A DNA stretch of 64,000 bases from Saccharofermentanales bacterium (lineage in GTDB: Bacteria; Bacillota; Clostridia; Saccharofermentanales; DTU023): assembly GCA_050951845.1 (NCBI GenBank), contig JBMNJV010000001.1, positions 102,905 to 166,904 of the forward strand, written 5' to 3'. Below, in pieces: positions 21,465-64,000 of this stretch (position 1 is its first letter; the number at the start of each line of letters is the position of its first letter). A program made the translations under genes and the position numbers. The notes beneath the pieces are model-generated. The model did not search any database and was not told the origin of the DNA. It saw only the letters and a program-made list of their open reading frames with translations.

Positions 21465-21479
21465 GGAATCACCTCGTAT

Positions 21480-21650
21480 TTTATTTTTTATTTTCCTGCT
21501 ATTCCTGCCAATAGTATAGGCACAAAGGACTGTTCTTTGGTTTGGCTTTACATATGTATAAGGAACCAACAAACCGGGCGAAAGTTCTGAAACAATATCA
21601 CGATAAAAAAGTATAACCCTGATATATTTCTGATAAACAGTATAACATCC
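21480..21650 (-). pseudogene. Internally deleted remnant of a paralogue of the 18106-19857 metallophosphoesterase gene
   Basis: 21560-21611 matches 18789-18840 at 45/52 nt (codons for YYRDIVSE.LPGL.VP). 21620-21649 matches the 5' flank 19901-19930 at 28/30 nt. The two segments are 8 bp apart here but 1,060 bp apart in the intact gene. Confidence 0.7.
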
Positions 21651-21977
21651 GGTACATCTGGTTTGGCAGCATAATATTAAAAAATAATCTGTCTTAGTCA
21701 GGTAGTCAGGTCTGCCAGGAACGTATATCGCCAACATCAAAAAAAATCCGGAAAATACTGATTATAAATCCAAATTGTTGAGTAAGAACAAAAATCAAAT
21801 AATACTACTTCGTTTCTTGTTCTGCATCTATCAAAGATCTCAATAAAACCTTTACAAAAAACCAAGCTGCTTCACCATTTTTCATCTAAATTTGATAAGA
21901 TAATCACTATAAATATTTGTTGCTTTCAATTATCAGTGTTTTTACAGATCAGCGAAAGTATAAAAGGGGAATTTGTT

Positions 21978-22769
21978 ATGAATCTTATACTTTTCTTTGT
22001 CAGTTTTTTAGCAAGTGTAGTGGGTGCTATCTGCGGAATCGGTGGCGGGGTCATCATAAAACCCCTGTTGGATAGCCTGTCGATCGCTTCCGTTTCCACC
22101 ATAAGCTTTTTATCAGGATGCACGGTACTTGGTATGACACTATATTCCGTTTCCAAAAGTATAAGATCGGGAGATAGCCAGGTAGATTATAAAATCGCCA
22201 CGCCTTTGGCAATTGGTGCCGCATTTGGCGGTGTCGCCGGAAAATATTTGTACACATCCATTAAAGACGCATCTCCTGATCCGGAACTGGTCGGGGCTTA
22301 TCAGGCAATAGCTCTCGCAGTTATTACTGTCGGTACATTGATCTATACCATCTTCAAAGATAAAGTAAAAACACATCAATTAACAAATAAAGTCGCTTGT
22401 TTAGTTATCGGACTTTTACTTGGCATGATGTCCAGCTTTTTAGGAATCGGCGGTGGTCCGATCAACTTGGTAGTCTTATATTTCTTCTTTTCCATGTCCA
22501 CCAAAATCGCTGCACAAAACAGTCTCTATATAATATTGCTCAGTCAAATTACAAGTGTTTTATCTACTATTCTTGCCGGAGAAGTACCGGAATTTTCAGT
22601 AATCTGGCTGGTTATTATGGTAATTGGCGGAATCGGCGGCGGTATAGCCGGAAGATACATCAATACTTTTATTGATGATGCAAAGGTCAATAAACTGTTT
22701 ATCGGACTGATGGTAGTTATCATAGGAATCAGCATCTATAATTCATGGCGTTTCTTAAATGTTTCCTGA
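21978..22769 (+). CDS. TauE/SafE (DUF81) family sulfite/sulfonate-type anion exporter
   Basis: 263 aa from ATG 21978 (RBS AAGGGGA). Multi-TM. Duplicated GIGGG(V/P)I motifs (ICGIGGGVIIKPLL, LGIGGGPINLVVL). Confidence 0.8.
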   Translation: MNLILFFVSFLASVVGAICGIGGGVIIKPLLDSLSIASVSTISFLSGCTVLGMTLYSVSKSIRSGDSQVDYKIATPLAIGAAFGGVAGKYLYTSIKDASPDPELVGAYQAIALAVITVGTLIYTIFKDKVKTHQLTNKVACLVIGLLLGMMSSFLGIGGGPINLVVLYFFFSMSTKIAAQNSLYIILLSQITSVLSTILAGEVPEFSVIWLVIMVIGGIGGGIAGRYINTFIDDAKVNKLFIGLMVVIIGISIYNSWRFLNVS

Positions 22770-22884
22770 AAAATGAACTACTCTGAAATTTTTAAAGTAT
22801 TATTTACAAATTTTAGAAAATACTGATTTTTTATTTAATAGAAAAAAATATAAATTCAAGATAGGAAAAGATATAAATTCAAGA

Positions 22885-24009
22885 TTACCGGTTTCTCGCG
22901 ACCAATTGAGCAAGATGTTGTAATTTGGGAAAAACATGCTCAAAGAACATCAAGTATCCTCGACAGAAACGATTTTGCAGATCTGCATTTTCGTTGACGA
23001 TACGATGACGATAACAACCATTACGACATAAATAAAAGAATTGACAATTCTTACAAGCTTCAGGTGTGACACGTGAACGATCCTCAAAATCCCGGGCAAT
23101 TTCGGACTGAAGCATTTGTTCAATCGAATCATGCTGAACCGTTCCGAGTAAATAATCATCTGTCATGTAAAAATCACAGGGATACACACTGCCATCCGCT
23201 TCTATAATCACGCTGGCAGCACATAAACCACGCTGTTCACAAGATTCAGGCATGATACCGAACATCAGATCCAGATAATTTTCGAATTGTCTGATATACG
23301 GCGCCCGGCCTTTAAGAGCATCTTCATACCAGAGATCAAATAAGCGAATTAAAAATTTTCCGTATGCTTCAGCTGTGAGAGACCATTCCTGCGGATTTTC
23401 TTTGTTGTCGAAATCAATCGGATCCAGACAAGCAATATATTGTTGATATAAGAGGCCGTTCTCTTTGTAGAATTGATAAATCTCGGAAATCGCTTCGGCA
23501 GTCTCTTTATGGACAACTGTCAGAATATTATAATCTACGTTAAATTTATTAAATAAATTTAACGTTTTAATAATTTCATTAAAAGTACCGTTTCCCGAAG
23601 GATCCTTGCGATATTTATCATGCGTTCTTTGAATGCCATCTACCGAGATACCTGCCAAGAATCTGTTTTGAGCAAAAAAAGATGCCCATTCAGCGCTGAG
23701 TTTATAACCATTCGTTTGAATCGCTCTGTAAACAGGAATGCCCCTGCTATTATGTTTTTCTTCGAGCTCAACATATTTTTGAAAGAAATCAAGTCCTGCC
23801 AAAGTAGGTTCTCCGCCTTGCCAAGAGATGGAACAGCTTTGATCAGCATATTCAAAAATCATTTGGAGAGTTTTATCCAAAGTTTCAATATTCATAAAAC
23901 CGCGGCATCCCTCTTCCCGATATTGCATTTCATCTTCATAGAAGCAATATTGACAACGCATATTGCACATACCGGATGCAGGTTTAATCATGACATTAAG
24001 ATGAGGCAT
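22885..24009 (-). CDS. Anaerobic sulfatase-maturating enzyme (radical SAM/SPASM)
   Basis: 374 aa from ATG 24009 (AAGGAG RBS). CNMRCQYC radical-SAM motif. C-terminal SPASM Cys clusters (CEQRGLCAAS, CDFY, CKNCQFFYLCRNGC). A Cys-type sulfatase is in the same locus. Confidence 0.85.
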   Translation of the reverse strand: MPHLNVMIKPASGMCNMRCQYCFYEDEMQYREEGCRGFMNIETLDKTLQMIFEYADQSCSISWQGGEPTLAGLDFFQKYVELEEKHNSRGIPVYRAIQTNGYKLSAEWASFFAQNRFLAGISVDGIQRTHDKYRKDPSGNGTFNEIIKTLNLFNKFNVDYNILTVVHKETAEAISEIYQFYKENGLLYQQYIACLDPIDFDNKENPQEWSLTAEAYGKFLIRLFDLWYEDALKGRAPYIRQFENYLDLMFGIMPESCEQRGLCAASVIIEADGSVYPCDFYMTDDYLLGTVQHDSIEQMLQSEIARDFEDRSRVTPEACKNCQFFYLCRNGCYRHRIVNENADLQNRFCRGYLMFFEHVFPKLQHLAQLVARNR

Positions 24010-24054
24010 AAAAACTCCTTGATTTCTTTGATTGTACAAACTATTTTACAGTAA

Positions 24055-24101
24055 TGATTGAAATTCAACAAGTTTTAAATAATTTGATTGATTTTCAATC
24101 A
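24055..24101. promoter_or_regulatory. Two TGATTGA-type palindromes (TGATTGAAATTCAACA 24055-24070; TGATTGA-TTT-TCAATCA 24085-24101) in the anSME/deoR divergent region
   Basis: Read directly. Related half-sites recur downstream of deoR (TGATTGAAT 24952-24960; ATTCAATA 24981-24988). Candidate DeoR operator. Confidence 0.4.
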
Positions 24102-24109
24102 CAAAATGC

Positions 24110-24138
24110 TTGATTTATGAAGAAATCTGTGTTACAAT
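24110..24138 (+). promoter_or_regulatory. Candidate sigma-A promoter of the DeoR gene (TTGATT-17-TACAAT)
   Basis: Hexamers and spacing read in the sequence, about 35 nt upstream of the start codon. Confidence 0.45.
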
Positions 24139-24171
24139 CATCAACAAAGATACAAAAAGGGAGCATAGCGC

Positions 24172-24942
24172 TTGAGAAAAGAAAAAAGAAGAGCTCATAT
24201 CATGGAAATGCTTCAGCACAGCAATACGGTTTTGATCCAGGATATTGTTGATGCTACAGGCGTTTCAGAAGCCACTATCCGAAGAGATATCATCTATCTG
24301 GAATCTGTCGGGGCATTGAAAAGATTTTGGGGAGGCGTACAGAGGTTAGAAACACCGGACAACCTCCGTAAAGCAGGCCTTATTAGTTACAAGTCCCGCC
24401 ACGATTTTGATGCTATCGGCAGTTTGGCTGCTTCCCGCTTAAAAGATAATCAATTAATATTCATAGGCTCAGGGATGACTACACTATCCATGATTCCTTA
24501 TATAAAGAACAGAAGTATCTCCGTTATTACTAACGGAATCCCGCAACTGGAAGCTTTATACGAAAAACGTATTCAAGCTCTTTTATTATGCGGTTTTTTT
24601 AAAGAGTACTCCCGGTCCCTTGTCGGAAAGGAAGCTCTTGAAATGCTTGCAAAATATAAGTTTGATCACGCCTTCCTCGGAGTCCACGGTATCGACGATA
24701 AACTTAATCTCCTTTCAGCCGATAATTACGAAGAATCAATCAAGAAAATTTGTATCCGTCAGTCTCGTCAAACTTACCTGCTTGCAGATAAAAGCAAGTT
24801 TTCCCGTACAGCCTATTATACTCTGCCGGCAGAAGATGCACGAGACACTATTTTAATCACAGATCAAAAACCTTTCGAGCATCCGGAATGGATTGAAAAA
24901 GACGGAGGATATATCGGAAAGATCGAAAATCTATTAAGATAA
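24172..24942 (+). CDS. DeoR-family transcriptional regulator
   Basis: 256 aa, TTG start with GGGAG RBS. HTH is IQDIVDATGVSEATIRRDIIYLESVGALKR, followed by a DeoR C-terminal sugar-phosphate sensor domain. Confidence 0.85.
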   Translation: MRKEKRRAHIMEMLQHSNTVLIQDIVDATGVSEATIRRDIIYLESVGALKRFWGGVQRLETPDNLRKAGLISYKSRHDFDAIGSLAASRLKDNQLIFIGSGMTTLSMIPYIKNRSISVITNGIPQLEALYEKRIQALLLCGFFKEYSRSLVGKEALEMLAKYKFDHAFLGVHGIDDKLNLLSADNYEESIKKICIRQSRQTYLLADKSKFSRTAYYTLPAEDARDTILITDQKPFEHPEWIEKDGGYIGKIENLLR

Positions 24943-25025
24943 AGTCACTTCTGATTGAATTTCGATCATCAATGACCGAGATTCAATAAGTAACTTAAAA
25001 ATCAGTCAAAAATCAGTCAAAACTG

Positions 25026-25055
25026 TTGACACGTTCATATTGGGTACGCTATATT
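25026..25055 (+). promoter_or_regulatory. Candidate promoter of the PTS-sulfatase operon (TTGACA-18-TATATT), preceded by an 11-bp tandem aaaatcagtca x2 (24997-25018)
   Basis: Read in the sequence. About 100-nt leader with inverted repeat ATATGTAACAT/ATGTTGCATAT. Confidence 0.4.
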
Positions 25056-25159
25056 TTAATATGTAACATAGGTAACGGCATGTTGCATATTTCATAAAAA
25101 TCCTTTTCTATGTTTAGCCGGCATAGACAAATGGAACAAATTTTTAAGGAGGGCTACGT

Positions 25160-26491
25160 ATGGACAAGGTTATTAATTTTCTGGTTAATGACTTACTAAC
25201 TACCCCTACCATCGTTATCGGTTTACTGATCATGCTTGGATATATCCTGCAAAAGGAGTCCGCTGTTAAAGTTATTACCGGTACTGTCAGCGCCATGGTA
25301 GGTATGCAATTAATCGTCTTCGGCGGAGGACAATTTTCAAATCTTTTCAAACCAATCACTGAAGCTGTTGCTGCAAAAACGGGAGTTCAAGGATATTTAA
25401 TGGACTCCTATGCTATGAGAACAGCAAGCTTAGAGGCTTTAGGAGATAAAGCCGGTTGGATGGGATATGTTTTCCTGATTGCATTCGCAGTAAATATTCT
25501 ACTCGTGTATTTCGGAAAATATACAAAAGCAAGAGGTGTTTTCTTAACAGGTAATGCCGGTACAGCTCACTCACAAGGTATGCTTTGGCTAATGGTCGCA
25601 AACTTTGCTTTATCATCACCTGTTCTGATTATTGCTTCCGGTGTTATTGTAGGTATCTACTGGGCCTACTCCACAACTTTAGCAGCCAAAGTTGTCGATG
25701 AAGTTACAGAAGGTGGCGGCTTTACGGTCGGACATAACCAGCAAGTCGGCATTTGGTTCTTCGGACGTTTAGCAGAAAAAATGGCACCGAAGAAAAAAGA
25801 CAAAAAGATCCTTGACTGTGATCACCTGGAACTTCCGGGCTGGCTGGCGATATTTAACAACAACGTTGTTTCTATCGCTATTCTGATGACCATTTTCGTC
25901 GGACTTTTCTGCATTCCTCTAGGCTTTGAAGGTCTTCAGGAATTAGCCGGCAAGAAACACTGGAGTATCTTCCTGATCTTATTAGGAATCCAATTCTCCA
26001 TGTTCATGGTTATCTTGCTCCAAGGTGTTCGTATGCTTTGTTCAGAATTAACAGCATCATTCCAAGGTATCCAACAAAAAATTGTACCTAATGCAGTTCC
26101 CGCTATTGACGTTGCAGCTTTATTACCTTTCTCACCGAACGCAACAACTTTCGGATTCTTATTCTGTACACTGGGAACCGTCATTTCCATGCTTATCTTA
26201 AGTGCTACAGGCAGTCCTATCATGGTTCTTCCGGGATTCACACCTCTCTTCTTCTCAGGTGGTCCTATCGGTGTTGTAGCTAATAAAAAGGGCGGCTTAA
26301 AAGCAGTTATTATTTGCTGTACTTTACTCGGTGTAATTCAAACTTTCGGTACCGTATGGGCAATCACACAAATGAACTATCCGGAAGGTATGGGATGGTC
26401 CGGTATGTTTGACCTTTCAACAGTATGGCCGGCACTCATTCAAGTATTACGTTGGATCGGCAGTGTTTTCGGATTTACTATTGCTTATTAG
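25160..26491 (+). CDS. PTS EIIC, L-ascorbate (UlaA/SgaT) family
   Basis: 443 aa polytopic membrane protein. Overall pattern is typical of UlaA-type IIC. RBS AAGGAGGG. Confidence 0.8.
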   Translation: MDKVINFLVNDLLTTPTIVIGLLIMLGYILQKESAVKVITGTVSAMVGMQLIVFGGGQFSNLFKPITEAVAAKTGVQGYLMDSYAMRTASLEALGDKAGWMGYVFLIAFAVNILLVYFGKYTKARGVFLTGNAGTAHSQGMLWLMVANFALSSPVLIIASGVIVGIYWAYSTTLAAKVVDEVTEGGGFTVGHNQQVGIWFFGRLAEKMAPKKKDKKILDCDHLELPGWLAIFNNNVVSIAILMTIFVGLFCIPLGFEGLQELAGKKHWSIFLILLGIQFSMFMVILLQGVRMLCSELTASFQGIQQKIVPNAVPAIDVAALLPFSPNATTFGFLFCTLGTVISMLILSATGSPIMVLPGFTPLFFSGGPIGVVANKKGGLKAVIICCTLLGVIQTFGTVWAITQMNYPEGMGWSGMFDLSTVWPALIQVLRWIGSVFGFTIAY

Positions 26492-26569
26492 ACATATTAA
26501 ATTAATTGCTAAAGCATCTAAAATTGTATATTAATCTTATCATTAAGCATTCATTGAAAGGAGTTTATT

Positions 26570-26887
26570 ATGAGTAAAAGTTCAATCAACGTATTATTTG
26601 TTTGCGGTATGGGTATGGGCACAAGCACCATGGCAGAACTCGGTGTTAAAAGAGAATTAAAACCTCTGAAAATCAGCGCTGAAGTTGATCATACTTCACT
26701 CGGCATGATGGCATCTCGCAGAGAATGGGCAGATATCATTGTGATCTTAAGAAATCTCTTTACCGAAGTTGTGCCGCAAGAAGGTGAGTTCTTTATTCCG
26801 GTTGTCAACGTCATGGCTTCCAAAGATATCGCAGCTCAAATTAACGAAATTGTTGTAGAACATTTCCCGGGTGCAAAGGAGAGTTAA
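26570..26887 (+). CDS. PTS EIIB (UlaB-like)
   Basis: 105 aa. Phospho-Cys loop is VLFVCGMGMGTSTM. RBS AAAGGAG. Confidence 0.8.
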   Translation: MSKSSINVLFVCGMGMGTSTMAELGVKRELKPLKISAEVDHTSLGMMASRREWADIIVILRNLFTEVVPQEGEFFIPVVNVMASKDIAAQINEIVVEHFPGAKES

Positions 26888-26888
26888 G

Positions 26889-28376
26889 ATGAGAGCCATC
26901 ATTGTATTTTTCGATACTCTCAATCGTGACTATTTACCGCAATACAATCCTGATTGCGGTACCATCGCACCAAATTTTGCAAGATTGGCCGAACGCAGCG
27001 TTCAATTCGACAACAACTATGTCGGATCTATGCCTTGTATTCCTGCCAGAAGAGATGTCCATACAGGCCGCTATAATTTTCTTCATAGAGAATGGGGACC
27101 GTTAGAGCCTTTTGATGACTCTATGCCGGAAATTCTGAAAAAGAACGGAATTTATACCCATTTAATCTCTGACCATCTGCACTACTGGGAAGACGGCGGG
27201 GCAACCTATCACTCCCGTTACTCCTCCTGGGAAATAGTTCGTGGTCAGGCAGGCGATCACTGGAAAGGCGAGCTTAAAGATCCTGAAGTTCCGGAAGTAG
27301 TTCGCGTTCCTCAAAGGCAGCAAGGTGGCGGTATAGCATCAGGATGGCGCTATGACTGGATAAACCGCGGGCATATCAAATCCGAGGCAGATTTCCCTCA
27401 AACTCAGTGTTTTGATTTGAGTTGTGAATTCATCGAAAAGAATAAAGACTACGATAACTGGTTCCTGCATATTGAGACTTTCGATCCTCATGAACCTTTC
27501 TTCGTGCCTCAAAAATATTTAGATATGTATCCGACAGATTATGACGGCAAGCTCTTCGACTGGCCGCGCGGCCCGCTGCAAGAAAGTGAAGAAGTTGTAC
27601 AAGAAGCCAGAAGACGTTATCAGGCTCTGATCACCATGTGCGACCGGAGTTTGGGACGCATCATGGATATGATGGACGAGTATAACATGTGGGATGATAC
27701 CCTCCTACTCGTAGGAACGGACCATGGCTTCCTTTTAGGCGAACATGATTATTGGGGTAAAAATTTAATGCCTTATTACAATCAAGTTGCCCATGCTCCT
27801 CTGTTTATCTGGGATCCGCGTTACGGCGTGAAAGGAGAGCACAGAGAATCTCTCGTTCAAATGATAGACTGGACACCAACTTTATTAAATTTCTTCGGCC
27901 AAGACATTCCGGAGGATGTTCAAGGGAGCAAATTGGATAACGTTATCACAGATGATGAGTCTAACAGAGATTATGCACTCTTCGGAGTTTTCAGCGGTCA
28001 TGCCAATATTACTGATGGCAGATACGTTTACATGAGAGCTCCGGAGCCGGATAAAAAAGACGATGTCTATAACTACACTCTGATGCCGGTTCATATGATG
28101 AATCGTTTCACACCTGATGAATTGAGAGATATGGAGCTTCATCCTCCTTTCTCCTTCACGAAAGGTTGTTCCGTCTTAAAGATTAAGAGCAAAGACCGTT
28201 ACAACGTAGCCCGCTATGGTACACGTCTCTACGATCTCGAAAATGATCCCAAACAGGAAAATCCCATTGACGATCCTGAAATCGAAGAGAGAATGAAACG
28301 TCTGCTCGTAAAAGCATTGAAAGAAAATGATTGTCCGAAGGAACAATACGTAAGATATGGTTTAACAGAAGAATAG
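26889..28376 (+). CDS. Cys-type sulfatase (formylglycine-dependent), apparently cytoplasmic
   Basis: 495 aa from ATG 26889 (AAGGAGAG RBS). Signature C-x-P-x-R plus TGR is present in SMPCIPARRDVHTGR. No N-terminal signal peptide or hydrophobic segment (MRAIIVFFDTLNRDY). Confidence 0.85.
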   Translation: MRAIIVFFDTLNRDYLPQYNPDCGTIAPNFARLAERSVQFDNNYVGSMPCIPARRDVHTGRYNFLHREWGPLEPFDDSMPEILKKNGIYTHLISDHLHYWEDGGATYHSRYSSWEIVRGQAGDHWKGELKDPEVPEVVRVPQRQQGGGIASGWRYDWINRGHIKSEADFPQTQCFDLSCEFIEKNKDYDNWFLHIETFDPHEPFFVPQKYLDMYPTDYDGKLFDWPRGPLQESEEVVQEARRRYQALITMCDRSLGRIMDMMDEYNMWDDTLLLVGTDHGFLLGEHDYWGKNLMPYYNQVAHAPLFIWDPRYGVKGEHRESLVQMIDWTPTLLNFFGQDIPEDVQGSKLDNVITDDESNRDYALFGVFSGHANITDGRYVYMRAPEPDKKDDVYNYTLMPVHMMNRFTPDELRDMELHPPFSFTKGCSVLKIKSKDRYNVARYGTRLYDLENDPKQENPIDDPEIEERMKRLLVKALKENDCPKEQYVRYGLTEE

Positions 28377-28413
28377 CTTTACAGTTCCATTGATAAACCG
28401 GACCAACAAAAAA

Positions 28414-28452
28414 GCCTTTCCCATGATTCTCTTTAACGGGAGAGGCTTTTTT
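28414..28452. terminator. Bidirectional rho-independent terminator between the convergent sulfatase and ligase genes
   Basis: GCCTTTCCC-15 nt loop-GGGAGAGGC (9-bp stem, one G-U), flanked by an A-run upstream and TTTTTT downstream. Confidence 0.75.
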
Positions 28453-28578
28453 ATATTCAGAATTTTATGACTTCCGACATTTTGCACTTTCCGACATTTG
28501 ATCCCTGCAAATACAGGCTGTCATTTGCCGGCCACCTCTATCTGAAACCACATTGTCGGGATGTATTCCTGAAATACT

Positions 28579-29850
28579 TCAGCCAATCATCCTCTTTCCT
28601 GAATAAAGAGACTTACAATTACCGTCACAAATTTGAGTACGTATTTTCAGTTTATAGTTTTTGTCACGTTCGGTGAAAATCGGCAAGTTGCAAATTCGGG
28701 TGCTTGTTTTGAGTTTGCCGGAAAGCAGAGCAGAGACACGTTTTTGTATCTCTTCTTCTATTTGAACATCTCCCAGAACATAGACCTCAAGCTCAAGTAC
28801 ATCACCGGCAAATTCAGCCTTAACATCTGCCAATTCTTTGATACCAAACAGCACTTCATCCAGATCCGACATGCGCAAATTATCGTCAAGACGCCCCTCC
28901 ACCTCTATTCTGGCACTCACGGCTCCGCAAGGACACGGCTCCGCCAGGATACGGGCCCTGTCACCCGTCCTGTATCTTATGAGCGGCATTATCTCCATTC
29001 CTACGGTCGTTATAACCAATTCTCCGTAGTCACCGTCAGGGACAGGTTTCCCGTTTTTTCCGATAATTTCAGTAATAATATGATTCTCCCTGACATGCAT
29101 GCCCTCATGAGCCTGACAGGTTACAGCTCCTCCGAGACAAGATTCTCTGAGACCGTAGTGCGGAAAGAGCCTGCTGCCCAGTATATCTTCGATTTCCCGC
29201 TGAACAGAAACAGAACAGACATCCGCAGAAACCAGGGCGCGTTTTAATGTAGAATTATTACCGCAGAATCTGAGCAATGAGAGCAGGGGTACCGGCATGC
29301 CTATATATGTATCGGGACGCTCAATACGCATCATTTCATTCAGTTCCGCATAACTTAAGTCCGAACCTGCCCTGATAGGCTTTGCACCCAGCAATTCCAC
29401 CGCCCTTGCTATCAGCTCGCCCAGGCCGCCAGAAACGGAAAAAGGCATAGTAATCAGCACAGTTTCGCCAGCCGCAGTCATCTCGGATATACCCGCAGCA
29501 AAAAAGCTGACTGTATTCTCCAAATCCCCGTCGGAATAAAAGATCCTCTTGGAAGGACCTGTGGTTCCGCTGGTGATGCCTGAAATAACCCTGCTCACCT
29601 CCGACTGAGAACCGAGAAGTAAAGAAGCAGCGTTTTCAGCCAGATCTTCTGCAGTTGTAAAGGGAAGGCCGGCTAATTCTCTCAGACTTGTGAGATGCTC
29701 CGGCAGATCAGCATAAAATCCCCCTCGTTTTTTTTCCTTGGCTAAGAGGGCATTCAGCTTGCTCAGCTGCAAGTTATCCAATATCTCTCCGGTCAAACAG
29801 GGAATATTTTCTTGATCACAGATCCATTTATCTAAGGCAGACTTTTTCAT
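28579..29850 (-). CDS. PaaK-like adenylate-forming enzyme (phenylacetate-CoA ligase / F390-synthetase-like)
   Basis: 423 aa from ATG 29850. Motifs TSGTTGPSKRIFYS and IRYRTGDRARI. Size and architecture are PaaK-like, not long acyl-CoA synthetase. Confidence 0.75.
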   Translation of the reverse strand: MKKSALDKWICDQENIPCLTGEILDNLQLSKLNALLAKEKKRGGFYADLPEHLTSLRELAGLPFTTAEDLAENAASLLLGSQSEVSRVISGITSGTTGPSKRIFYSDGDLENTVSFFAAGISEMTAAGETVLITMPFSVSGGLGELIARAVELLGAKPIRAGSDLSYAELNEMMRIERPDTYIGMPVPLLSLLRFCGNNSTLKRALVSADVCSVSVQREIEDILGSRLFPHYGLRESCLGGAVTCQAHEGMHVRENHIITEIIGKNGKPVPDGDYGELVITTVGMEIMPLIRYRTGDRARILAEPCPCGAVSARIEVEGRLDDNLRMSDLDEVLFGIKELADVKAEFAGDVLELEVYVLGDVQIEEEIQKRVSALLSGKLKTSTRICNLPIFTERDKNYKLKIRTQICDGNCKSLYSGKRMIG

Positions 29851-29953
29851 TTTCCGTATCAGGTCTCTCCTTTGCTGTGCGTGAGTTTGCAGAAGCAAAA
29901 AGGAACTATGTCACGCTCACTGTCTGCTGCACAAAATAATATGAATTTCTGAC

Positions 29954-30379: not shown

Positions 30380-30384
30380 AGAAT

Positions 30385-30975: not shown

Positions 30976-31196
30976 TACTTATCCTCCAGAACCTTCTCTA
31001 CGGAAAGAACCTTACCCAGAGCCAAATCCTCCGGGACATAAACAAAGCCGCATTTAGGGCAGGCGGGTAACTCGACGGGAAATGAATTGTCCAGATATTC
31101 AAAAACCGCCTCCGTCTTTTCCAGAGGGATACCGCACTTGCTGCAGATGAGATTTTCCTCCGCTTCCACAGAGTAATATACTTTATTGTCTGTCAT
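30975..31196 (-). CDS. Small zinc-ribbon protein (two CxxC pairs)
   Basis: 73 aa. CSKCG...CPKCG. Translationally coupled on both sides (overlapping stop/start codons). Confidence 0.7.
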   Translation of the reverse strand: MTDNKVYYSVEAEENLICSKCGIPLEKTEAVFEYLDNSFPVELPACPKCGFVYVPEDLALGKVLSVEKVLEDK

Positions 31197-54122: not shown

Positions 54123-54159
54123 CTTTACAGTTCCATTGATAAACCGGACCAACAAAAAA

Positions 54160-54198: not shown

Positions 54199-54324
54199 AT
54201 ATTCAGAATTTTATGACTTCCGACATTTTGCACTTTCCGACATTTGATCCCTGCAAATACAGGCTGTCATTTGCCGGCCACCTCTATCTGAAACCACATT
54301 GTCGGGATGTATTCCTGAAATACT

Positions 54325-55596: not shown

Positions 55597-55699
55597 TTTC
55601 CGTATCAGGTCTCTCCTTTGCTGTGCGTGAGTTTGCAGAAGCAAAAAGGAACTATGTCACGCTCACTGTCTGCTGCACAAAATAATATGAATTTCTGAC

Positions 55700-56125
55700 T
55701 TAAATCAAATCGTATTTCTGCATGATCAAGATGCATTTTTCCAGCGTGTCTCTGACTACCATGGGGCAGCGCAGTACTTTGTTGCCCGGATCACCTTCCA
55801 AAATCTGCCTGCAGTCTATACCGCCGTATTCGGCAGTATATTCAACAAACCATTCATATAACTCTTTTGACATGCTTTTCAAATTGACGTTCTCCACTTC
55901 GTCATCTCCGCCTCTTCCGCCAAAATAACTTAAAAAGCACATTCCCCCGCTGAGAGCGCCGCAGACCTCGCCAGAACCGTCAAGGCCTCCTCTCAGACCG
56001 GCCATGGCACGGACTAAGTCAGGATTTTCCTTACCCTCACTCTCAAGAGCAATCAATAGTATTACCTGTGCACAAGAATAACCTTTTTGCGAAAGCTCTA
56101 ATAGTCTGTCGAAGATATCACTCAT
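55700..56125 (-). CDS. C_GCAxxG_C_C family protein (copy 2)
   Basis: Identical translation to 29954-30379. Confidence 0.7.
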   Translation of the reverse strand: MSDIFDRLLELSQKGYSCAQVILLIALESEGKENPDLVRAMAGLRGGLDGSGEVCGALSGGMCFLSYFGGRGGDDEVENVNLKSMSKELYEWFVEYTAEYGGIDCRQILEGDPGNKVLRCPMVVRDTLEKCILIMQKYDLI

Positions 56126-56130
56126 AGAAT

Positions 56131-56721
56131 TCACATCCTTTCACTGACACTTAAAAAATACCTGAATCTTTTTGTACAATAATCATCGTGTTTAAGCTTA
56201 CAGAACTTCTCCGCAGTCCCGTCCCATATCCTCTCAATGTAATAGTATTTCCATTCGTCAGTAATATCCACACAGGATAGGGGGTTAAAACCGCCTGTCC
56301 GCAAAAATTTATAAAAATTTGCCTCATCACCATAAAAAATATCTGAGAGGAGAAGTTTTCCGCCTCTTATCAGCAGCCTGTGAGCTTCCCTGAGAGCTGC
56401 GCAGCCATCTCCCGAGATAAAAAAAGCACATTCGGATATAATCGCTTCAAAGCTCCCGTCGGAAAAACAGGCCCTCAACATATCGCCTCCGGTCACATCT
56501 TCCCCGGGCTCCAGATCTATACCGCAGGCATCAAAACCCAGCTCTTTTAATAGTTTGAGAGTAGCTCCGCTCCCGGCTCCCATGTCCAGAATTCTGCAGG
56601 GCTCAATACCCGAATGCTTGATCAGACGTCTCGTTGTTTTCCGGCCGCCGGGATGCCTTTCAAGCTTCTCTTTATATCCCGTGTTCAGACATAAAGAATC
56701 AGTAAATCCTGATACATCCAC
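56131..56721 (-). CDS. SAM-dependent methyltransferase (copy 2)
   Basis: Identical translation to 30385-30975. Confidence 0.8.
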   Translation of the reverse strand: MDVSGFTDSLCLNTGYKEKLERHPGGRKTTRRLIKHSGIEPCRILDMGAGSGATLKLLKELGFDACGIDLEPGEDVTGGDMLRACFSDGSFEAIISECAFFISGDGCAALREAHRLLIRGGKLLLSDIFYGDEANFYKFLRTGGFNPLSCVDITDEWKYYYIERIWDGTAEKFCKLKHDDYCTKRFRYFLSVSERM

Positions 56722-56942
56722 TACTTATCCTCCAGAACCTTCTCTACGGAAAGAACCTTACCCAGAGCCAAATCCTCCGGGACATAAACAAAGCCGCATT
56801 TAGGGCAGGCGGGTAACTCGACGGGAAATGAATTGTCCAGATATTCAAAAACCGCCTCCGTCTTTTCCAGAGGGATACCGCACTTGCTGCAGATGAGATT
56901 TTCCTCCGCTTCCACAGAGTAATATACTTTATTGTCTGTCAT
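56721..56942 (-). CDS. Small zinc-ribbon protein (copy 2)
   Basis: Identical translation to 30975-31196. Confidence 0.7.
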   Translation of the reverse strand: MTDNKVYYSVEAEENLICSKCGIPLEKTEAVFEYLDNSFPVELPACPKCGFVYVPEDLALGKVLSVEKVLEDK

Positions 56943-59242
56943 ACATCATACCTCGTTCTCACCTTCATGCGGTGACTGTATGCTCCTTTGATATTGTAAA
57001 CGCCCGCTTCGTCCTCTGTAAATCTGAGCCAAAATGTGACATTACCCTTTCTCAAAGAACTCGTGAGCAGGCCGCTTTTTTCATCGTAGACGGCACTTCC
57101 GCCGGCATGATACGCCCCTATGACGTCATATACGTCTTCCTCCAGAATCATGCGCTGATCAAGAATTTTGGCCACATCCTCCGGTATCACTATCTTGTAT
57201 TCGGGACTCACCACTATTACCTCCTCATTCCATATCTCTTCCAACAGCTTACGCTTGAGATTCAGTCTGTTTTTGCGCTTCTCGGATATATCGGGCGGGT
57301 TACCTGCCGGAGCTGCATAAACAAGTTCAAGTACATGCATACTCTCCCTTCCTTCTCTGGCGAAGCGGTCGCGGCAGGCCATGCAATAACTGATATAAGG
57401 CACATCTTCATCCTTGGTGCAACTTTGAGCCATCTTGGATGCGAGATCCTTATTTACATAACTCACGAGACCGCCGTAGCCGCAACATTCCGTCATGTCG
57501 CCGTTATACGGAACCTCCTTTAATGTGCAGCCTAAACTGGCAGTAAGCTTACGCAGAGCAACTTGCATATCGCTATCTCCTCTTGCGCTGCAGGAATCGT
57601 GCATGATCAGCGGTCTGTCGTATTCCAAGGCTCCCTCGGGCAATCCGTTTTCATTAAGTATATCCCAGATACCTTTCACCTCTGTCCCCGTCATTTCTTC
57701 AAGCGTCTTTTTGCAAGTGGGACAAGCAGCGATTATTTGAGGATTTCCGAGTTTATTCAGTTCGCTTTTTAAGAGTTCTTCACACTCCTCATAAATTGCA
57801 GTCCTTCCGGCCCATTTGGCTATAGCACCGCAACAGCCGTTGATCAGACCTACTCCTCCTTCAAGTCTTTCTGCCAGATCCGAATAGGCCTTAAATACCG
57901 CCTCAGGCGCTATGGCTCCGGCCTGACACCCCGGAAAAAACACATATTTGCATTCCTCATATCCTGATTGGGGCTTGGCAAGAAAAGCTTCATTGTTTGA
58001 AAAGAGCATGTCCAAAAGGGCAAATTCATGGTAGGCCAGAGACATCTTGGTCGTGCTGACCATATTTTCCCTGGCATCCCTGCAGATTTCAGCCATGTCA
58101 TAGCCGTTGGGACAAGTGAAAGTACACTGACCGCAGAGTGAACAAGAGTTTATGGTCTTATTCATCAGGTGGTCACCCATGATTATATCTACGTTGTTGT
58201 AAATCTCTCTGGTTAGTAACCGCGGGTATTTGCCCGTTTCCTGCAGAAAAACACAGTGTTTTATGCATTCCTCACATTTACACTGTATACATCGCGCAGC
58301 TTCTTCCATTGCAGCTTCTTTTGTGTAACCTTCTTCCGGCTCGGGGATTCGCTTTGAGGGAACCGCCTCACTCATGTCAGTGTAAAGCCTGGACTCTCTA
58401 GCCCCTTCTTCGCCCCGCGAACTTCCCGGATCCAAGCCCTGGGCTATGCGATCAGCGGAAACTCCCGCTCTCCTTGCATCAAAAATAGCTTCTAAAACAC
58501 TTATATCGCTGTTTTGCGAGCTGAGGAGCTTAGATACAGGAGATAACAGGGTCCTGCTGTCAGGTATATCTCCCGGAAAACATTCATCCAGAAAACTGCG
58601 GGCTGCAGCGACTATATTATAGATTTCCTGCTCGCTCTCAAATAACTCTTTTGTGAGCTTGGCAGAGTAAATAATTTTTATATCCATAGCCTCAAGCCTT
58701 GCAGCTTCTTTGGCCAAATCATCTTCCGATAAAAAAGGGGCACAGTCTTTAATCAGAGAGATTGCGTCCGCCTGGCTTACATAAAAACTCGTGGGATAGC
58801 TTTTTCTCGCCAGCTCCGCAGCCAGAGAAAGTGAAAACAGATCCGCACCGTACACTGCTGCCTTTTGCTTTTTCTTGAACTTCAGCATGCCCCTCCCCGT
58901 CTTCGGGCTGCCATGGTTGATCGCCGCACGTTCTAAAGCCGGAATATCAATACCTTCCCCGACTTCGTTCATCCTGCAGACCTCTTTGCAAGGAGCTGCA
59001 CAGCCGTAAACCAGGATACGAGGAAATGGCGTGACATGCTCAAGCATTGCACGAGCCTCGGAGAAATTACCTTTCTCTACAAAGGCTATCAGTTTTTTTG
59101 CGTCTAAACCCAAAGGACAGGCAGCGTGGCAAAAAGCGGGTTCTTCATAAATACAGCGATATTCACGCTCCAGCAATCCCTCTAAGCTATACAGCTTTTT
59201 TTGAATATAGTCCCTGGTAGATCTCTCTTTGAAATGGTCCAT
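56939..59242 (-). CDS. GltD/HdrD-like multidomain Fe-S oxidoreductase (copy 2)
   Basis: Identical translation to 31193-33496. Confidence 0.8.
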   Translation of the reverse strand: MDHFKERSTRDYIQKKLYSLEGLLEREYRCIYEEPAFCHAACPLGLDAKKLIAFVEKGNFSEARAMLEHVTPFPRILVYGCAAPCKEVCRMNEVGEGIDIPALERAAINHGSPKTGRGMLKFKKKQKAAVYGADLFSLSLAAELARKSYPTSFYVSQADAISLIKDCAPFLSEDDLAKEAARLEAMDIKIIYSAKLTKELFESEQEIYNIVAAARSFLDECFPGDIPDSRTLLSPVSKLLSSQNSDISVLEAIFDARRAGVSADRIAQGLDPGSSRGEEGARESRLYTDMSEAVPSKRIPEPEEGYTKEAAMEEAARCIQCKCEECIKHCVFLQETGKYPRLLTREIYNNVDIIMGDHLMNKTINSCSLCGQCTFTCPNGYDMAEICRDARENMVSTTKMSLAYHEFALLDMLFSNNEAFLAKPQSGYEECKYVFFPGCQAGAIAPEAVFKAYSDLAERLEGGVGLINGCCGAIAKWAGRTAIYEECEELLKSELNKLGNPQIIAACPTCKKTLEEMTGTEVKGIWDILNENGLPEGALEYDRPLIMHDSCSARGDSDMQVALRKLTASLGCTLKEVPYNGDMTECCGYGGLVSYVNKDLASKMAQSCTKDEDVPYISYCMACRDRFAREGRESMHVLELVYAAPAGNPPDISEKRKNRLNLKRKLLEEIWNEEVIVVSPEYKIVIPEDVAKILDQRMILEEDVYDVIGAYHAGGSAVYDEKSGLLTSSLRKGNVTFWLRFTEDEAGVYNIKGAYSHRMKVRTRYDV

Positions 59243-59501
59243 AAATTTCTCTCCATTTGTCTGGCAGTGCTAGGGAATAATCCTGCATAGTATTATTTTA
59301 GAGATACAGAATCATAGCCATCCTTTTAAGGATGGTTTGAAATCGGCTTATAAGACTTGTCAGCGCCCGGCATCTCAAGATGCCGGATTTCACTACATTC
59401 AAACAGAGAGGCGGTATAACCTGCCTCTCTGTTTATTATAATACATTAATTAAGTGTTTCGCTGACTATATAATATTTTACAATATTTTTTACTGACTAT
59501 C

Positions 59502-62258
59502 CTATAATTCTTTCAGTGCTTCCAGGACTACATCCGGTTTAGCAGGGACTCTGGTTATACGAGCGCCGGTAGCATTATAGATAGCGTTCAGTATAGCCGG
59601 ATGAGGTGCGGTCAGTGGTGCTTCACCGCAGCCTGCAGCTCCGAAGAGGCTATTCGGACGCGGATGAGATTCCTGATAGATAACTTCCAGGTTGTCAGGT
59701 ATATCCGTCGGATACGGAATGCCGCATCTGAGCAGAGATGTGTGCTTCTCAAGATCTTCGAAATCCTCGGTTAACGCCAGACCGATACCTTGTGCAAGTC
59801 CTCCGTAGAACTGTCCGTCTACGACGGCTTTATTCATTACAGTTCCGACATCGGCAACACAAGTAAATTTCTCAACTTTAACCTTGCCGGTTTCTGTGTC
59901 AACAGCTACCTCCGGCAGGAAAATGCTGTACATATATCCCGGGAACGGATCGCCCTGACCGGTTTCCTGGTTTAGTGCAACCGAAGCGGTGAAAGCATAA
60001 ACGCCTTTTGCATGGGTGTCTATTCCATCGGCCTGCATTTCCTCATATGTCCTGTATGTTCCGTCATCTTTCTTCATAGCTTTGACCAGGTTTTCACATG
60101 CAATACGAGTTGCATTGCCTGTCATTATTGTCGAACGGCTGCCGCCGGCAGGACCGGAGTTCGGGGTGTGCTTGGTATCACATTGGAATAATTTAATATC
60201 TTCCGGCTTAAAGCCTGCTTCTCTCAGTGCTTCGTGTGCCGAAGTAAGAGTTCCCATATCGGCACCTTGACCGTGATCTTCCCAGGAGTTTCTGACCAGG
60301 ACAGTATTATCAGGCTGTAAGTCGACCCAGCACTCGGAGACATCTGAGTTATCTAAGCTACAACCGTATACACCCAAGGAAACACCGATGCCGTATTTGA
60401 TTTTTCCGTCAGAAGCGGCGTTCTTTTCTTCTACGCGTTTCTTGGCTTCCAGATATTTCGGACGTGCCAGATCGTAAAGATCCTCTAAGCAATATACATC
60501 AGGTTTGCAGCCGGTTGGCGTGCGAGAGTCTTCACTTTCCTTGTAGCAGTTCATAGCTCTCATTTCGAAAGGATCGATTCCCATCTTGGCAGCGAGGCAG
60601 TCAATAGCTATATCGCTACCCATAAAGGCCTGAGGTGAACCGTAAGCTCTGAATGCCGAACCCCATGCGTGATTGGTAAATACTGTTGAATTTTTGCTTC
60701 TTATACTCGGGATATCAAGACCTGCGCCCACGAACTGAGTCAATCTGTGAGTGAGAAGATCGCCGAATTCCGAGTACGGACCGTGATCAATGTAATTACG
60801 GCCCCAGAGTGCCTGGATCTTACCGTCATCATCGGCAGCAAGCTTGATATTCATGAAGCCCGGGCTTCTCTTTCCGGTATAAGTGATGGATTGATACATA
60901 TTAAAGTTAAGGCTGACAGGGCGCTGTGTAACAAAAGCGGCAACTCCCAGCAGAGCCTCGTTTGTCGGTGAGAATTTATATCCGAAGGTACCTCCGGCAT
61001 TATTTTGAACCATTCTTAAGTTTTCCATCTCAACACCGATACCTTCAGCAATCATCGGCATATGGAGGTGGATACCTATACTCTTGGAATGAATAGTGAG
61101 CATTCCGTCTTCGTCTATGTATGCATAGCCGTTGTCAGGCTCGAGGTACATGTGAGGCTGACGTGAACAGTAGCTCTCGATTTCTATTTGATTTTCTTCA
61201 GGTACGCTGTCCCAATCGAAATCAGGTCCCTTGATACAATTTGTCTCGTAATATTCGTTAGGAATTCCCGGATGAATTTCGATTGCGTCAGGCGCAAGTG
61301 CTTCAGGCACACTCATGTACGCAGGGAGAACTTCCAGATCAACTTTTACAGCTTTTGCAGCCGCCCTGGCTTGTTCCTCTGTGTCTGCAGCTACGATCGC
61401 TATGGCATCGCCGAATTGGAAAACTTTCTCGTCACAAAGTATCGGGCGATCCCAGCCGTCACATTTGTTGTTTAACGGTAACATGACGAGACCGTTGATA
61501 CGGTTCTTTCCGGGAACATCTTTGGCAGTGATAATCTTGTATACTCCGGGCATTTTTTCCGCCTCGGAAGTATCTATACCTTTGATATTGGCATGTGAAA
61601 CTTCAGCTTGAACCAGGGCAAGACGTAAGGTGTCCGGAGGCATATAAAGTGCATCGTCCGCACCGAAGTCCCAGGTTCCCGTTACTTTCATTGCAGCTGA
61701 AGGACGTACATACTCCGTGCCGAGTATGCGATTGTCTGTCGGTTCAAACATGAGATCTTCTTTGGTTTTTTCACCTCGCAATACTGCAGCCGCTGCCATG
61801 GTGGCATCGATGAGAGGCTTATAGCCGGTACATCTGCAGAGATTACGGCATTTGTTGAACCATGCGCTGACTTCTTCTCTGGTCGGATCAGGATTTTGAT
61901 CAAGCAGAACCTTGGCACTGATTATGAAGCCGGGGCTGCAGAAACCGCACTGTGCACATCCATAAGCCATCCATGCCACTTGAAGCGGATGGAGATTGTC
62001 AAGTGTACCTATACCTTCAATTGTCGTGATTTCAGAAAAATCAGGAACATTTGAGATCGGTACGATACAGGACCTGGTTACTTTTCCGTCTAATATAACA
62101 TTACAAGCTCCGCATTGACCTTGCCCACAGCCGATCTTACATCCTGTGAGCAGAAGACGCTCACGAAGTATAGTTGAGAGCTTTTCATCACCCTTGACGA
62201 GAATACTCCTCTTAACTCCGTTAATATTCAGAATTTTTTTAGTGACTCCCTTACCCAT
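59502..62258 (-). CDS. MOP-type molybdenum aldehyde oxidoreductase (copy 2)
   Basis: Identical translation to 33756-36512. Confidence 0.85.
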   Translation of the reverse strand: MGKGVTKKILNINGVKRSILVKGDEKLSTILRERLLLTGCKIGCGQGQCGACNVILDGKVTRSCIVPISNVPDFSEITTIEGIGTLDNLHPLQVAWMAYGCAQCGFCSPGFIISAKVLLDQNPDPTREEVSAWFNKCRNLCRCTGYKPLIDATMAAAAVLRGEKTKEDLMFEPTDNRILGTEYVRPSAAMKVTGTWDFGADDALYMPPDTLRLALVQAEVSHANIKGIDTSEAEKMPGVYKIITAKDVPGKNRINGLVMLPLNNKCDGWDRPILCDEKVFQFGDAIAIVAADTEEQARAAAKAVKVDLEVLPAYMSVPEALAPDAIEIHPGIPNEYYETNCIKGPDFDWDSVPEENQIEIESYCSRQPHMYLEPDNGYAYIDEDGMLTIHSKSIGIHLHMPMIAEGIGVEMENLRMVQNNAGGTFGYKFSPTNEALLGVAAFVTQRPVSLNFNMYQSITYTGKRSPGFMNIKLAADDDGKIQALWGRNYIDHGPYSEFGDLLTHRLTQFVGAGLDIPSIRSKNSTVFTNHAWGSAFRAYGSPQAFMGSDIAIDCLAAKMGIDPFEMRAMNCYKESEDSRTPTGCKPDVYCLEDLYDLARPKYLEAKKRVEEKNAASDGKIKYGIGVSLGVYGCSLDNSDVSECWVDLQPDNTVLVRNSWEDHGQGADMGTLTSAHEALREAGFKPEDIKLFQCDTKHTPNSGPAGGSRSTIMTGNATRIACENLVKAMKKDDGTYRTYEEMQADGIDTHAKGVYAFTASVALNQETGQGDPFPGYMYSIFLPEVAVDTETGKVKVEKFTCVADVGTVMNKAVVDGQFYGGLAQGIGLALTEDFEDLEKHTSLLRCGIPYPTDIPDNLEVIYQESHPRPNSLFGAAGCGEAPLTAPHPAILNAIYNATGARITRVPAKPDVVLEALKEL

Positions 62259-62282
62259 TCTGGATTCTCCTTTCTGGATTAC

Positions 62283-62418
62283 CTCTTGATTTTCTCTCTT
62301 GAATCTCTTGTTCTCTTGTTTTTCTCGTGATTTCTTCCGATTTTCTCTTGATTTTCTCTTGATTATTTCTCGATTTACTCTTGATTTGCTTTTGATTTGC
62401 TTTTGATTTGCTTTTCTA
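62283..62418 (-). repeat. Phased 11-nt CTCTTGATTT repeat array in the mop leader (copy 2)
   Basis: Compared base by base with 36537-36672 and found identical. Confidence 0.85.
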
Positions 62419-62601
62419 CAATTATTAAGATTTTTACGACAAAATTTACATTAAGACATTGCTAAAAAGTTGTTTTAATGTAAACCTCTGTTGAGACTGC
62501 AATTAATTTTATTGCTGACCGGTTGCTGACTGTTACCATCTTTATTTTTATTGTAAACTGTTACCATCTTATATTCTTATATTTATGAAAGGAGACAGTT
62601 T

Positions 62602-62859
62602 ATGAATAACAATGCCGACATGCCTAAAAAAATTACTGCGGATGAGATTAAAGTCGAAGTAGTCGATAAGGATACGGGAATAACTTATGTGAGAAAACTC
62701 CCTATAAACTACCTGGAAACATCTAATTTTCTTCGTCTTTCCGCTGAAGACAGCCAAGGAAAACCGTCTTCACTTGTATTCTACACCGAACAGGGAGTCC
62801 TTGGTCTCCGGGATATGACAGGCGGCGGACCGGATACCCACCGCTGTGAAGATCACTAG
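62602..62859 (+). CDS. Hypothetical 85-aa protein (copy 2)
   Basis: Identical translation to 36856-37113. Confidence 0.5.
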   Translation: MNNNADMPKKITADEIKVEVVDKDTGITYVRKLPINYLETSNFLRLSAEDSQGKPSSLVFYTEQGVLGLRDMTGGGPDTHRCEDH

Positions 62860-63116
62860 GAATAATAATATTCCACATTTTTCAACGTAAATTCTAAGAT
62901 ATTCCCGATAATACTCTACTTAAATAAATTTTAATAATAGAGTATTTTTCTGTCAAATTGTTTGTCATTACAAGTTGTATTTGTTTACAACTCGAGTAAA
63001 ACTGTTTATACTATTTTTAACAATTCGGCAAGGGGGCTATCTCCAAAAAGTGAGCAGTTTCCATACTTGAGGAATCCTTCTTTGGAAACAGTACCCACAT
63101 AACGAAAGGTGAAACT

Positions 63117-64000
63117 ATGAAAGTAGGAGCAGTGATTACGGCAGCCGGAATGTCATCCAGAATGGGCAAATTCAAGCCCATGCTCAGCATCGGTTCTATA
63201 TCCGTGGCGCAGCGTATCATTGCAACTCTGCAGCAGTCCGGTGTCTCGCCGATAGTAGTCGTCACCGGCTATAATGCTGACGAACTTGAAAGACATCTTG
63301 CCAAAAGCGGCGTCATCTTCCTTCGCAACGAAAATTATAAAAACACGGAAATGTTCGATTCGGCTTGTATCGGTTTAAGTTATCTGCGCAAAAAATGCAA
63401 CCGTGTTTTATTTACTCCGGTGGACATACCGCTTTTCAGGGCAGACACCGTAGAAGAACTCCTGAAAAAGCATAGTGATGTAGTATATCCCGTCTGTGCC
63501 GGTCTTAAAGGTCATCCCATACTCCTCTCCTCAAAAGCAATCGAGCTCATACTGGATTACAGCGGTGAGGGCGGTCTCGCCGGAGCCCTTCAGAAACTTG
63601 ATATTTCTGAAGCATATGTTTGCATCGAAGACGAGGGCATACTCTACGATGCCGACACCCCCGAAGAATTCGATCAGCTTTTGGAATACCACAACAGCCA
63701 GCTGATGCGCCCTGTCATCAAGCTCTCCCTGGAAAAAGAGAGAAGGTTTTTTGACCAACATATTGCACTTTTACTGGAACTTATAGATGAGACACGGTCA
63801 GTCAAGACGGCCTGTCAGCGAATGCAGATCTCGTACAGCAAGGGCTGGAAGACTCTCAATTCGATAGAAGCTCAGGCCGGTTTTGCCTTGGTTTTACGTA
63901 GGCAAGGCGGAGCACGAGGTGGCAGCAGCAGCCTTACCCCGGAGGGCAGGCTGCTTTTGGAGCGCTATCGTAAATATGAAAAAGCCATGCGGGAAGCGTC
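63117..64000 (+). CDS. MocA-like NTP transferase / ModE-like HTH fusion (copy 2, 3' end beyond the window), carrying Y169C relative to copy 1
   Basis: Same frame and sequence as 37371-38254 except TAC->TGC at 63622. It has no stop before the window end, so it is missing from the ORF track. Confidence 0.8.
   Translation, partial: MKVGAVITAAGMSSRMGKFKPMLSIGSISVAQRIIATLQQSGVSPIVVVTGYNADELERHLAKSGVIFLRNENYKNTEMFDSACIGLSYLRKKCNRVLFTPVDIPLFRADTVEELLKKHSDVVYPVCAGLKGHPILLSSKAIELILDYSGEGGLAGALQKLDISEAYVCIEDEGILYDADTPEEFDQLLEYHNSQLMRPVIKLSLEKERRFFDQHIALLLELIDETRSVKTACQRMQISYSKGWKTLNSIEAQAGFALVLRRQGGARGGSSSLTPEGRLLLERYRKYEKAMREA

Follow-up and report, generated by a model that had tools for sequence, protein, structure and literature searches.

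A very recent complex duplication, most likely formed by replicative template switching, in an uncultured Saccharofermentanales bacterium

Fork stalling and template switching (FoSTeS) and microhomology-mediated break-induced replication (MMBIR) are models for complex chromosomal rearrangements. Tandem inversion duplication (TID), a direct-inverted-direct arrangement that is remodelled by deletions, has reportedly been observed in Salmonella in the work of Kugelberg, Roth and colleagues, and promoter capture by duplication is known from the rnk-citT module of Cit+ Escherichia coli. Gene amplification in E. coli has been attributed to microhomology junctions and long-distance template switching, with switch distances of 7 to 32 kb in lac-system amplifications of E. 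coli/Salmonella (Slack et al. 2006, PMC1428787), and promoter-fusion lac amplifications are cited in the same paper. Here we analyze a window of 64,000 nucleotides from a Saccharofermentanales bacterium (GCA_050951845.1, contig JBMNJV010000001.1, positions 102,905 to 166,904 of the forward strand), in which a 17.8-kb block, R, occurs twice in direct orientation, once after the unique left flank, A, and once after an 8-kb segment, X. We consider it likely that the window records a real and very recent complex duplication, A-R-X-R(...), and that replicative template switching of the long-distance template-switch, FoSTeS or MMBIR type is the process behind it.

The window reads A (1-21466), R copy 1 (21467-39246, + strand), X (39242-47220, - strand) and R copy 2 from 47213 (+ strand), which is cut by the window end at 64000. 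Base-by-base comparison at an offset of 25,746 gave ~25% identity through 21466 and 100% identity from 21467 on, except for one mismatch; 21467-38254 thus equals 47213-64000 over 16,788 bp, 38254 being the last base with a partner inside the window. A stretch of this length with a single substitution is far above the chance level, and self-BLAST of the window revealed no second long repeat. The sole difference between the copies, A at 37876 (+ strand) versus G at 63622, replaces Y169 with C in a MocA/DVU_1551-like NTP transferase. The A allele is carried by six other loci checked (L006, L008, L010, L012, L024 and L027 in our numbering of public contigs), and the G allele is present in an independent contig, SRR31066037_667 (L028), indicating that the substitution is a genuine variant rather than an error of the consensus. 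A first-pass annotation of the window, made from its letters without database searches, had proposed a real repeat with a period of 25,746 bp, a left edge at 21467/47213 and a very recent origin. The comparison confirms the period and matches the edge exactly, and the near-absence of substitutions supports the recent date. The annotation had also predicted, for a tandem unit, that identity would continue to ~72958, which does not agree with the public contigs: these place the right end of R, hidden in the window itself, at 39246, giving R a length of 17,780 bp. Copy 2 is accordingly predicted to end at 64992, and its sequence is expected to part from X at 64992/64993.

What is the origin of the 25.7-kb period? 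Public contigs from the same strain (100% identical) and from related strains (97 to 99.5%) were retrieved by exact-protein look-ups, and in them R and X belong to two separate loci. At the first locus, A-R-D, the block R is found once after the sixA-like gene and runs on into a full-length 357-aa HisPhos-HD gene and then, in D, into genes for XdhC, an NTPase, DUF364, FecCD and others. This order is unbroken in JGI Ga0591961_000094 (185 kb, 100% identical over 21.5 kb), ENA ERZ2647986 NODE_1 (1.52 Mb), NCBI GCA_049659005.1 and several Logan contigs, and the A|R junction is native, being crossed by five contigs (L024, L025, L026, L029 and L005). At the second locus, C-X-B, a sugar operon lies between PfkB with its neighbors (B) and DeoC/FGGY with theirs (C), as in JGI Ga0591962_0000862, GCA_049659005.1, ERZ2647986 NODE_1 and others; the native DeoC-family aldolase has 235 aa in L001. 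The PfkB|DUF4432 adjacency is kept even in another species, represented by the metagenome-assembled genome (MAG) Clostridiaceae bacterium AS23ysBPME_19 (86% nucleotide identity). In every case the similarity of C-X-B contigs to the window ends at exactly 39242 and 47220, so that the X of the window is an extra, inverted, 7,979-bp copy of a partial sugar operon. It is 100% identical to the X of same-strain contigs (L001, L020 and L022) and 99.5% identical to that of other strains (L034 and L035), suggesting that it was copied from within the genome. Since R natively precedes D and X sits between C and B, the window contains two novel junctions, 39246/39247 and 47212/47213, and the 25,746-bp period is, on the evidence of these contigs, the sum of two unrelated pieces, R and X.

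The largest contig, ERZ2647986 NODE_1, carries both native loci. X is located at 1,023,736-1,031,714, with the window + strand as the contig + strand, and R at about 1,197,970-1,215,8xx, with the window + strand as the contig - strand; the two are ~166 kb apart and in opposite orientations, and the PfkB-proximal end of X faces R. The window flips X, joining the end of R to the far (deoC) end and the near end to the start of R.

Both joints were read by aligning the window with L006, which carries native R to D, and L001, which carries native C to X. At the X|R joint (47213-47220, + strand), native X to B reads ...CATATTAATCACCTtgttcc, native A to R reads ...CATGGAATCACCTCGTATTT and the window reads ...CATATTAATCACCTCGTATTT, with a microhomology of 8 bp, AATCACCT. 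This octamer is the complement of the Shine-Dalgarno sequence AGGTGATT, which is common to the native sixA gene and the native DUF4432 gene. At the R|X joint (39242-39254, + strand), the corresponding sequences are GGTAGGTCTGCACAAAAGG for native R to D, GATGGTCTTGCACAAACAG for native C to X and GGTAGGTCTTGCACAAACAG for the window, and the microhomology is GGTCT, exact over 5 bp (39242-39246), or 12/13 positions when extended to GGTCT(T)GCACAAA. No longer shared sequence was found at either joint by self-BLAST or in the junction alignment. By our own estimate, about (n+1)/4^n, the chance of a match of at least n bases at a random joint is ~1e-4 for 8 bp and ~6e-3 for 5 bp. The possibility that Shine-Dalgarno octamers are a generally abundant source of microhomology was rejected, as AATCACCT occurs 3 times in the window versus 2.6 expected; a count so near expectation means that the coincidence is specific to the sixA and DUF4432 genes.

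The left edge of the repeat is located 2 to 3 nt before the start codon (ATG) in two unrelated genes on the minus strand. For copy 1 this is the sixA-like phosphohistidine phosphatase gene with which A ends (21021-21464, - strand; TIGR00249 sixA, below cutoff), whose ATG is 2 nt from the edge, and for copy 2 it is the DUF4432 gene (46196-47209, - strand), which starts 2 to 3 nt from it. Because the octamer is the complement of both genes' Shine-Dalgarno sequence, the extra copy of the DUF4432 operon keeps its own ATG and gains the ribosome-binding site and leader of sixA, to which it is joined 3 nt before that ATG. The other joint interrupts two genes, HisPhos-HD after 311 of its 357 codons and deoC after ~45 codons. 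Two chimeric open reading frames (ORFs) span it: a HisPhos-HD ORF of 311 native codons followed by 30 codons antisense of deoC' (38312-39337, + strand) and a DeoC ORF of ~45 N-terminal codons of the DeoC-family aldolase followed by R antisense (39166-39381, - strand).

How could such a structure be produced? A nascent strand copying R would quit its template at GGTCT, reprime on the opposite strand inside deoC and copy 8 kb back toward R; it would then quit at AATCACCT, reprime at the identical octamer before sixA, copy R a second time and run on into D. Template switching is favored because direct copies enclose an inverted insert, both joints show microhomology, no recombinase is present and the insert is 100% identical to the X of the same strain. 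Two traits of such events, at least two novel junctions joining nonadjacent segments (here R-end|X-start and X-end|R-start) and microhomology at each of them (8 bp; 5 bp, or 12/13 extended) with no long homology, were found. The reading is built on the observed structure, the parental loci, the microhomologies and the independent assemblies described below, and from these we infer the order of events and the orientation of X in the ancestor. An alternative route, in which a tandem inversion duplication of ~192 kb is pared down by two deletions at microhomologies, would give the same product, and the template-switch and trimmed-TID routes are indistinguishable from the product. A route through a large direct duplication that spans R to X, with a later internal deletion, was rejected as the sole one, since X is inverted relative to R in ERZ2647986; this rejection presumes that the ancestor of the window strain was arranged like the related strain.

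Compared with the described systems, the locus shares with the lac-system amplifications its direct, kilobase-long repeats and joints in microhomologies of 4 to 15 bp without a recombinase, and with these and the FoSTeS/MMBIR models more than one joint, a templated insert from elsewhere, a donor that is probably kept and an unstable product. It differs in coming from uncultured Clostridia of anaerobic digesters without a selection experiment, in a switch of ~166 to 190 kb, longer than the 7 to 32 kb of those amplifications, and in a mechanism drawn from the product alone. The resemblance to TID lies in the direct-inverted-direct order, a middle piece from the same chromosomal neighborhood and asymmetric joints at short direct homologies; the order holds on the assumption of an ancestor like ERZ2647986, where X is opposite to R, while in the window it has the same orientation as R. 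Unlike the middle piece of a TID, X lies outside the flanking repeat and shares nothing with R, and neither alignment nor self-BLAST revealed an inverted repeat or palindromic precursor at either joint; a TID would also need two deletions of ~170 to 190 kb each. As in promoter capture, a junction sets a promoterless or differently regulated operon behind a foreign leader, the difference being that the joint here falls inside a Shine-Dalgarno sequence, making a seamless swap of ribosome-binding site and leader, and that capture itself is a hypothesis.

Independent assemblies bear on whether this arrangement is biological or a product of assembly. All four boundaries (21467, 39246, 39242 and 47220) are reproduced in them to the base. 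Two whole contigs equal R exactly (17,780 bp), Logan SRR31066037_667 and JGI Ga0591960_0005542; another, SRR31061295_61198, begins at 21467, and three (L008, L010 and L012) stop at 39246. On the A side, the flank contigs L003 and L004 stop at 21496, 30 nt into R, which equals k-1 for k=31, the value we take to be that of the Logan assemblies and with which the 30-nt overhang fits. In 4 samples, X (39242-47220) makes up a whole contig of 7,979 bp, indicating that the C-X-B and R-X-R contexts coexist there at the sample level. Contigs broken in this manner need reads with a second left neighbor of the start of R and a second right neighbor of its end, and likewise for X. Signs of the rearrangement are present in SRR31066037, SRR31061295 and JGI 3300060823, whereas in the sister sample SRR31066036 contigs cross A|R and X|B without a break, so that the rearrangement is absent or rare there; to judge from the contigs, this contrast points to a segregating variant. 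Many Logan contigs of different samples also end at 42102-42129. These breaks were considered as a third junction near 42102 and rejected, being due to a 12-nt tandem repeat, CTTTTTCTTCAG x 5.8 at 42055-42169, which lies inside the ABC binding-protein gene (41097-42290, - strand) and encodes a repetitive N-terminal stretch of the protein before its Peripla_BP_4 domain.

Against this background, an assembly artefact, in which sequences were joined chimerically or strain variants mis-threaded and the junctions exist in no genome, is very unlikely. The first-pass annotation had kept this option open, and it gains from the near-identity of the copies and from the presence of several strains in the community (contigs 97 to 100% identical). 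Assemblers do not, however, join at overlaps of 5 to 8 bp, and it is the breaks of independent k=31 and JGI assemblies at the segment boundaries, with their 30-nt flank overhangs, together with the G allele seen elsewhere, that lead us to this judgment; the junctions do find support outside this assembly. Several observations nonetheless weigh against the duplication as we read it. Among the public contigs retrieved, none besides the window spans either novel junction, a point in favor of the artefact as well. Exact-pattern scans with a 41-mer of the R end (genome_contigs) and a 51-mer of the X end (metagenome_contigs) were empty, in collections that do not include this strain. Neither junction-spanning chimeric ORF is on record in exact-protein look-ups, an absence that is uninformative because short-k assemblies are expected to break at the joints. 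The graph evidence shows that the adjacencies exist at graph level and not that both R copies lie on one chromosome. In JGI 3300060679, A-R-D is assembled through (185-kb contig L024) and X is a separate 7,979-bp contig (L022), a pattern that suggests a mixed population, with a minority rearranged subpopulation, or assembler heuristics, and that is not fully explained. Finally, the distance and orientation of X come from one 1.52-Mb contig of a strain that is 97 to 99.5% identical and is not the window strain. Part of this pattern would also suit a 25,746-bp circular R-X molecule beside a wild-type chromosome, the path of the window being a mis-threading through R. Circle and chromosome together would give the same adjacencies as A-R-X-R-D, A-R-D would be assembled straight through as in JGI 3300060679, and the substitution, 16.4 kb from the start of R, is unphaseable with the left junction by typical HiFi reads (N50 of ~10 kb in comparable data sets). 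R and X have no replication, partition or mobilization genes and no plasmid similarity, though, so that a circle could not persist; it would still need both microhomology joints, most simply via a chromosomal array, and the junction pattern recurs in several samples. We consider the circle improbable.

Three other histories were considered. In the model of the first-pass annotation, a single contiguous stretch, 21467-47212, was duplicated head to tail, leaving 47212/47213 as the only novel junction; the period of 25,746 bp, the direct orientation of the repeat and the lack of mobile genes speak for it, and the annotation had proposed synteny in related genomes as a check. That comparison contradicts the model, which now retains hardly any credibility. 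R is followed by D and X lies between C and B in at least six independent assemblies, including a 100%-identical strain and another species, and the unit is contiguous in none of them; direct copies are adjacent only for R, with the 8-kb X between them; X is inverted relative to R in ERZ2647986; and instead of a single novel junction there is a second one, 39246/39247, with its own microhomology and two truncated genes. Of the gene groups that the unit was said to carry, the sulfatase/phosphotransferase system (PTS) locus and the MOP cluster are indeed in R, and the rare-sugar operon belongs to the separate X. The copying of a segment to a new site is all that speaks for a mobile element, whether a composite transposon, a translocatable unit mediated by an insertion sequence or an integrative element with R or X as its cargo, and we judge such an origin extremely unlikely. 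Pfam scans, which covered every ORF of 100 aa or more, detected no transposase, integrase, recombinase or relaxase domain, a tRNA scan found no tRNA in the window, megablast gave no plasmid or phage match, and the junction alignments and self-BLAST revealed neither terminal inverted repeats nor target-site duplications at the boundaries; deoC is cut at codon ~46 by one end of X, and HisPhos-HD at codon ~311 by the right end of R. On this point the first-pass annotation, which had seen no transposase, integrase or terminal inverted repeat and preferred replication or recombination to a mobile element, is borne out. Further amplification after the same origin, A-(R-X)n-R-D with n of at least 2 and copy 2 followed by X again, is unlikely. 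Direct repeats of 17.8 kb are efficient substrates for unequal recombination, the window sets no limit on n and the graph evidence is blind to it; no positive evidence supports n of at least 2, and the single substitution separates only two versions of R. Beyond 64992, A-R-X-R-D predicts D, GCACAAAAGGATAAAGAG... / GCACAAAAGG / GCACAAAAGGATAAAGAGAC... (the 3' end of HisPhos-HD and then XdhC), and (R-X)n predicts X, TGCACAAACAG / TGCACAAACAGAAATTAAAT....

The duplicated block carries two groups of genes. The first part of R encodes a TauE-like exporter, an anaerobic sulfatase maturase (TIGR03942, above cutoff), a DeoR regulator, PTS IIC/IIB components and a sulfatase. Its second part is a cluster of the Desulfovibrio DVU_155x type, with genes for a CoA ligase of the DVU_1553 family, a C_GCAxxG protein, a methyltransferase, a dicluster ("diclust_near_Sec") oxidoreductase, a molybdopterin-dependent aldehyde oxidoreductase (Mop; NF045668, 1503 bits) and a MocA-like NTP transferase, and with the 3'-truncated HisPhos-HD gene. 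X contains genes for DUF4432, an FGGY kinase, a D-psicose 3-epimerase (NF051856, above cutoff), an ABC permease, a binding protein and an ABC ATPase, the transporter being of the ribose type, and ends with deoC'; by annotation, six of its genes are intact (39457-47209, - strand).

Several features of these genes vary among strains or depart from related families. For the TauE-like exporter, exact-protein look-up matched a 263-aa version, and a 277-aa version is not on record. The sulfatase maturase (22885-24009 in the window; 5996-7120 in L025/L032) is intact, at 374 aa, in the window strain and GCA_049659005.1 and is found as two pieces of 257 and 76 aa in ERZ2647986 and ERR3656298, which may represent a frameshift or pseudogene in some strains. 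The 359-position NCBIfam model of the DVU_1551-family NTP transferase is split over two adjacent genes (37371-39337), positions 2-196 matching a protein with NTP_transf_3 and a ModE-like HTH and positions 198-321 matching the HD part of HisPhos-HD; this split suggests that domains have been rearranged in comparison with the Desulfovibrio type. Between the Mop oxidoreductase and MocA-like genes lies the leader 36513-37370 (and 62259-63116), called the "mop leader" in the first-pass annotation, within which other assemblies call an 85-aa ORF without a Pfam match; at the gathering threshold, Rfam gave no family in the region scanned and no Moco riboswitch in this leader. In the left flank, a 2,861-aa ORF (9250-17835, - strand) has Rib/He_PIG/TSP3 repeat domains and internal DNA repeats (10141-10294 versus 10378-10531). 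Its homologue has 2,329 aa in GCA_049659005.1 and 2,847 to 2,860 aa in other contigs, and the repeat number, judged by these lengths, seems to vary among strains. Stretches of 55 and 39 bp at 18789-18843 and 19900-19938, one intragenic and one just upstream in the region of a metallophosphatase gene, are 85 to 87% identical to 21560-21614 and 21619-21657 (also 47306-47403) in the sixA/TauE intergenic region at the start of R, and they may be a common regulatory motif.

What would the rearrangement mean for the cell? The sulfatase/PTS genes and the Mop cluster would be present in two doses. The extra DUF4432-kinase-psicose epimerase-ABC operon would sit behind the sixA leader, a third promoter context, since the sixA/TauE leader and intergenic region of copy 2 (47213-47681, - strand) is placed upstream of it. 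We infer a change in expression from this placement alone, as a putative promoter capture of the DUF4432 operon by the sixA leader. A promoter-like site at 21511-21483 (= 47257-47229) is a weak consensus match that does not exceed shuffle expectation, and the native 104-nt gap between PfkB and DUF4432 has no promoter-like or terminator-like site on the + strand; neither observation weighs much. The 17.8-kb direct repeat could collapse or amplify via RecA recombination. It is conceivable, if doubtful, that selection is at work and that the R-X array is an adaptive, currently segregating amplification, in which one double template switch would have brought both a dosage gain and a seamless promoter capture, and in which the differences among samples would record a natural sweep of a duplication-inversion-duplication. 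As to habitat, a related contig comes from ERR10905742, a PacBio HiFi data set of anaerobic-digester sludge (PMC10541625), and, among named genomes, a biogas-reactor-style MAG with the label Clostridiaceae is the nearest.

The case is a well-resolved natural example of a known rearrangement type and not a new mechanism or system. What looks like a 25.7-kb tandem unit turns out to be a complex rearrangement with two junctions, and its parents can be rebuilt to the base from public contigs, providing a natural, nonlaboratory instance of microhomology-mediated duplication with an inverted templated insert, in which one joint falls inside a ribosome-binding site and gives an operon a foreign leader. 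Duplicated blocks of this kind in long-read metagenome assemblies need not be artefacts or contamination, and the unitig lengths of independent short-k assemblies can validate them.

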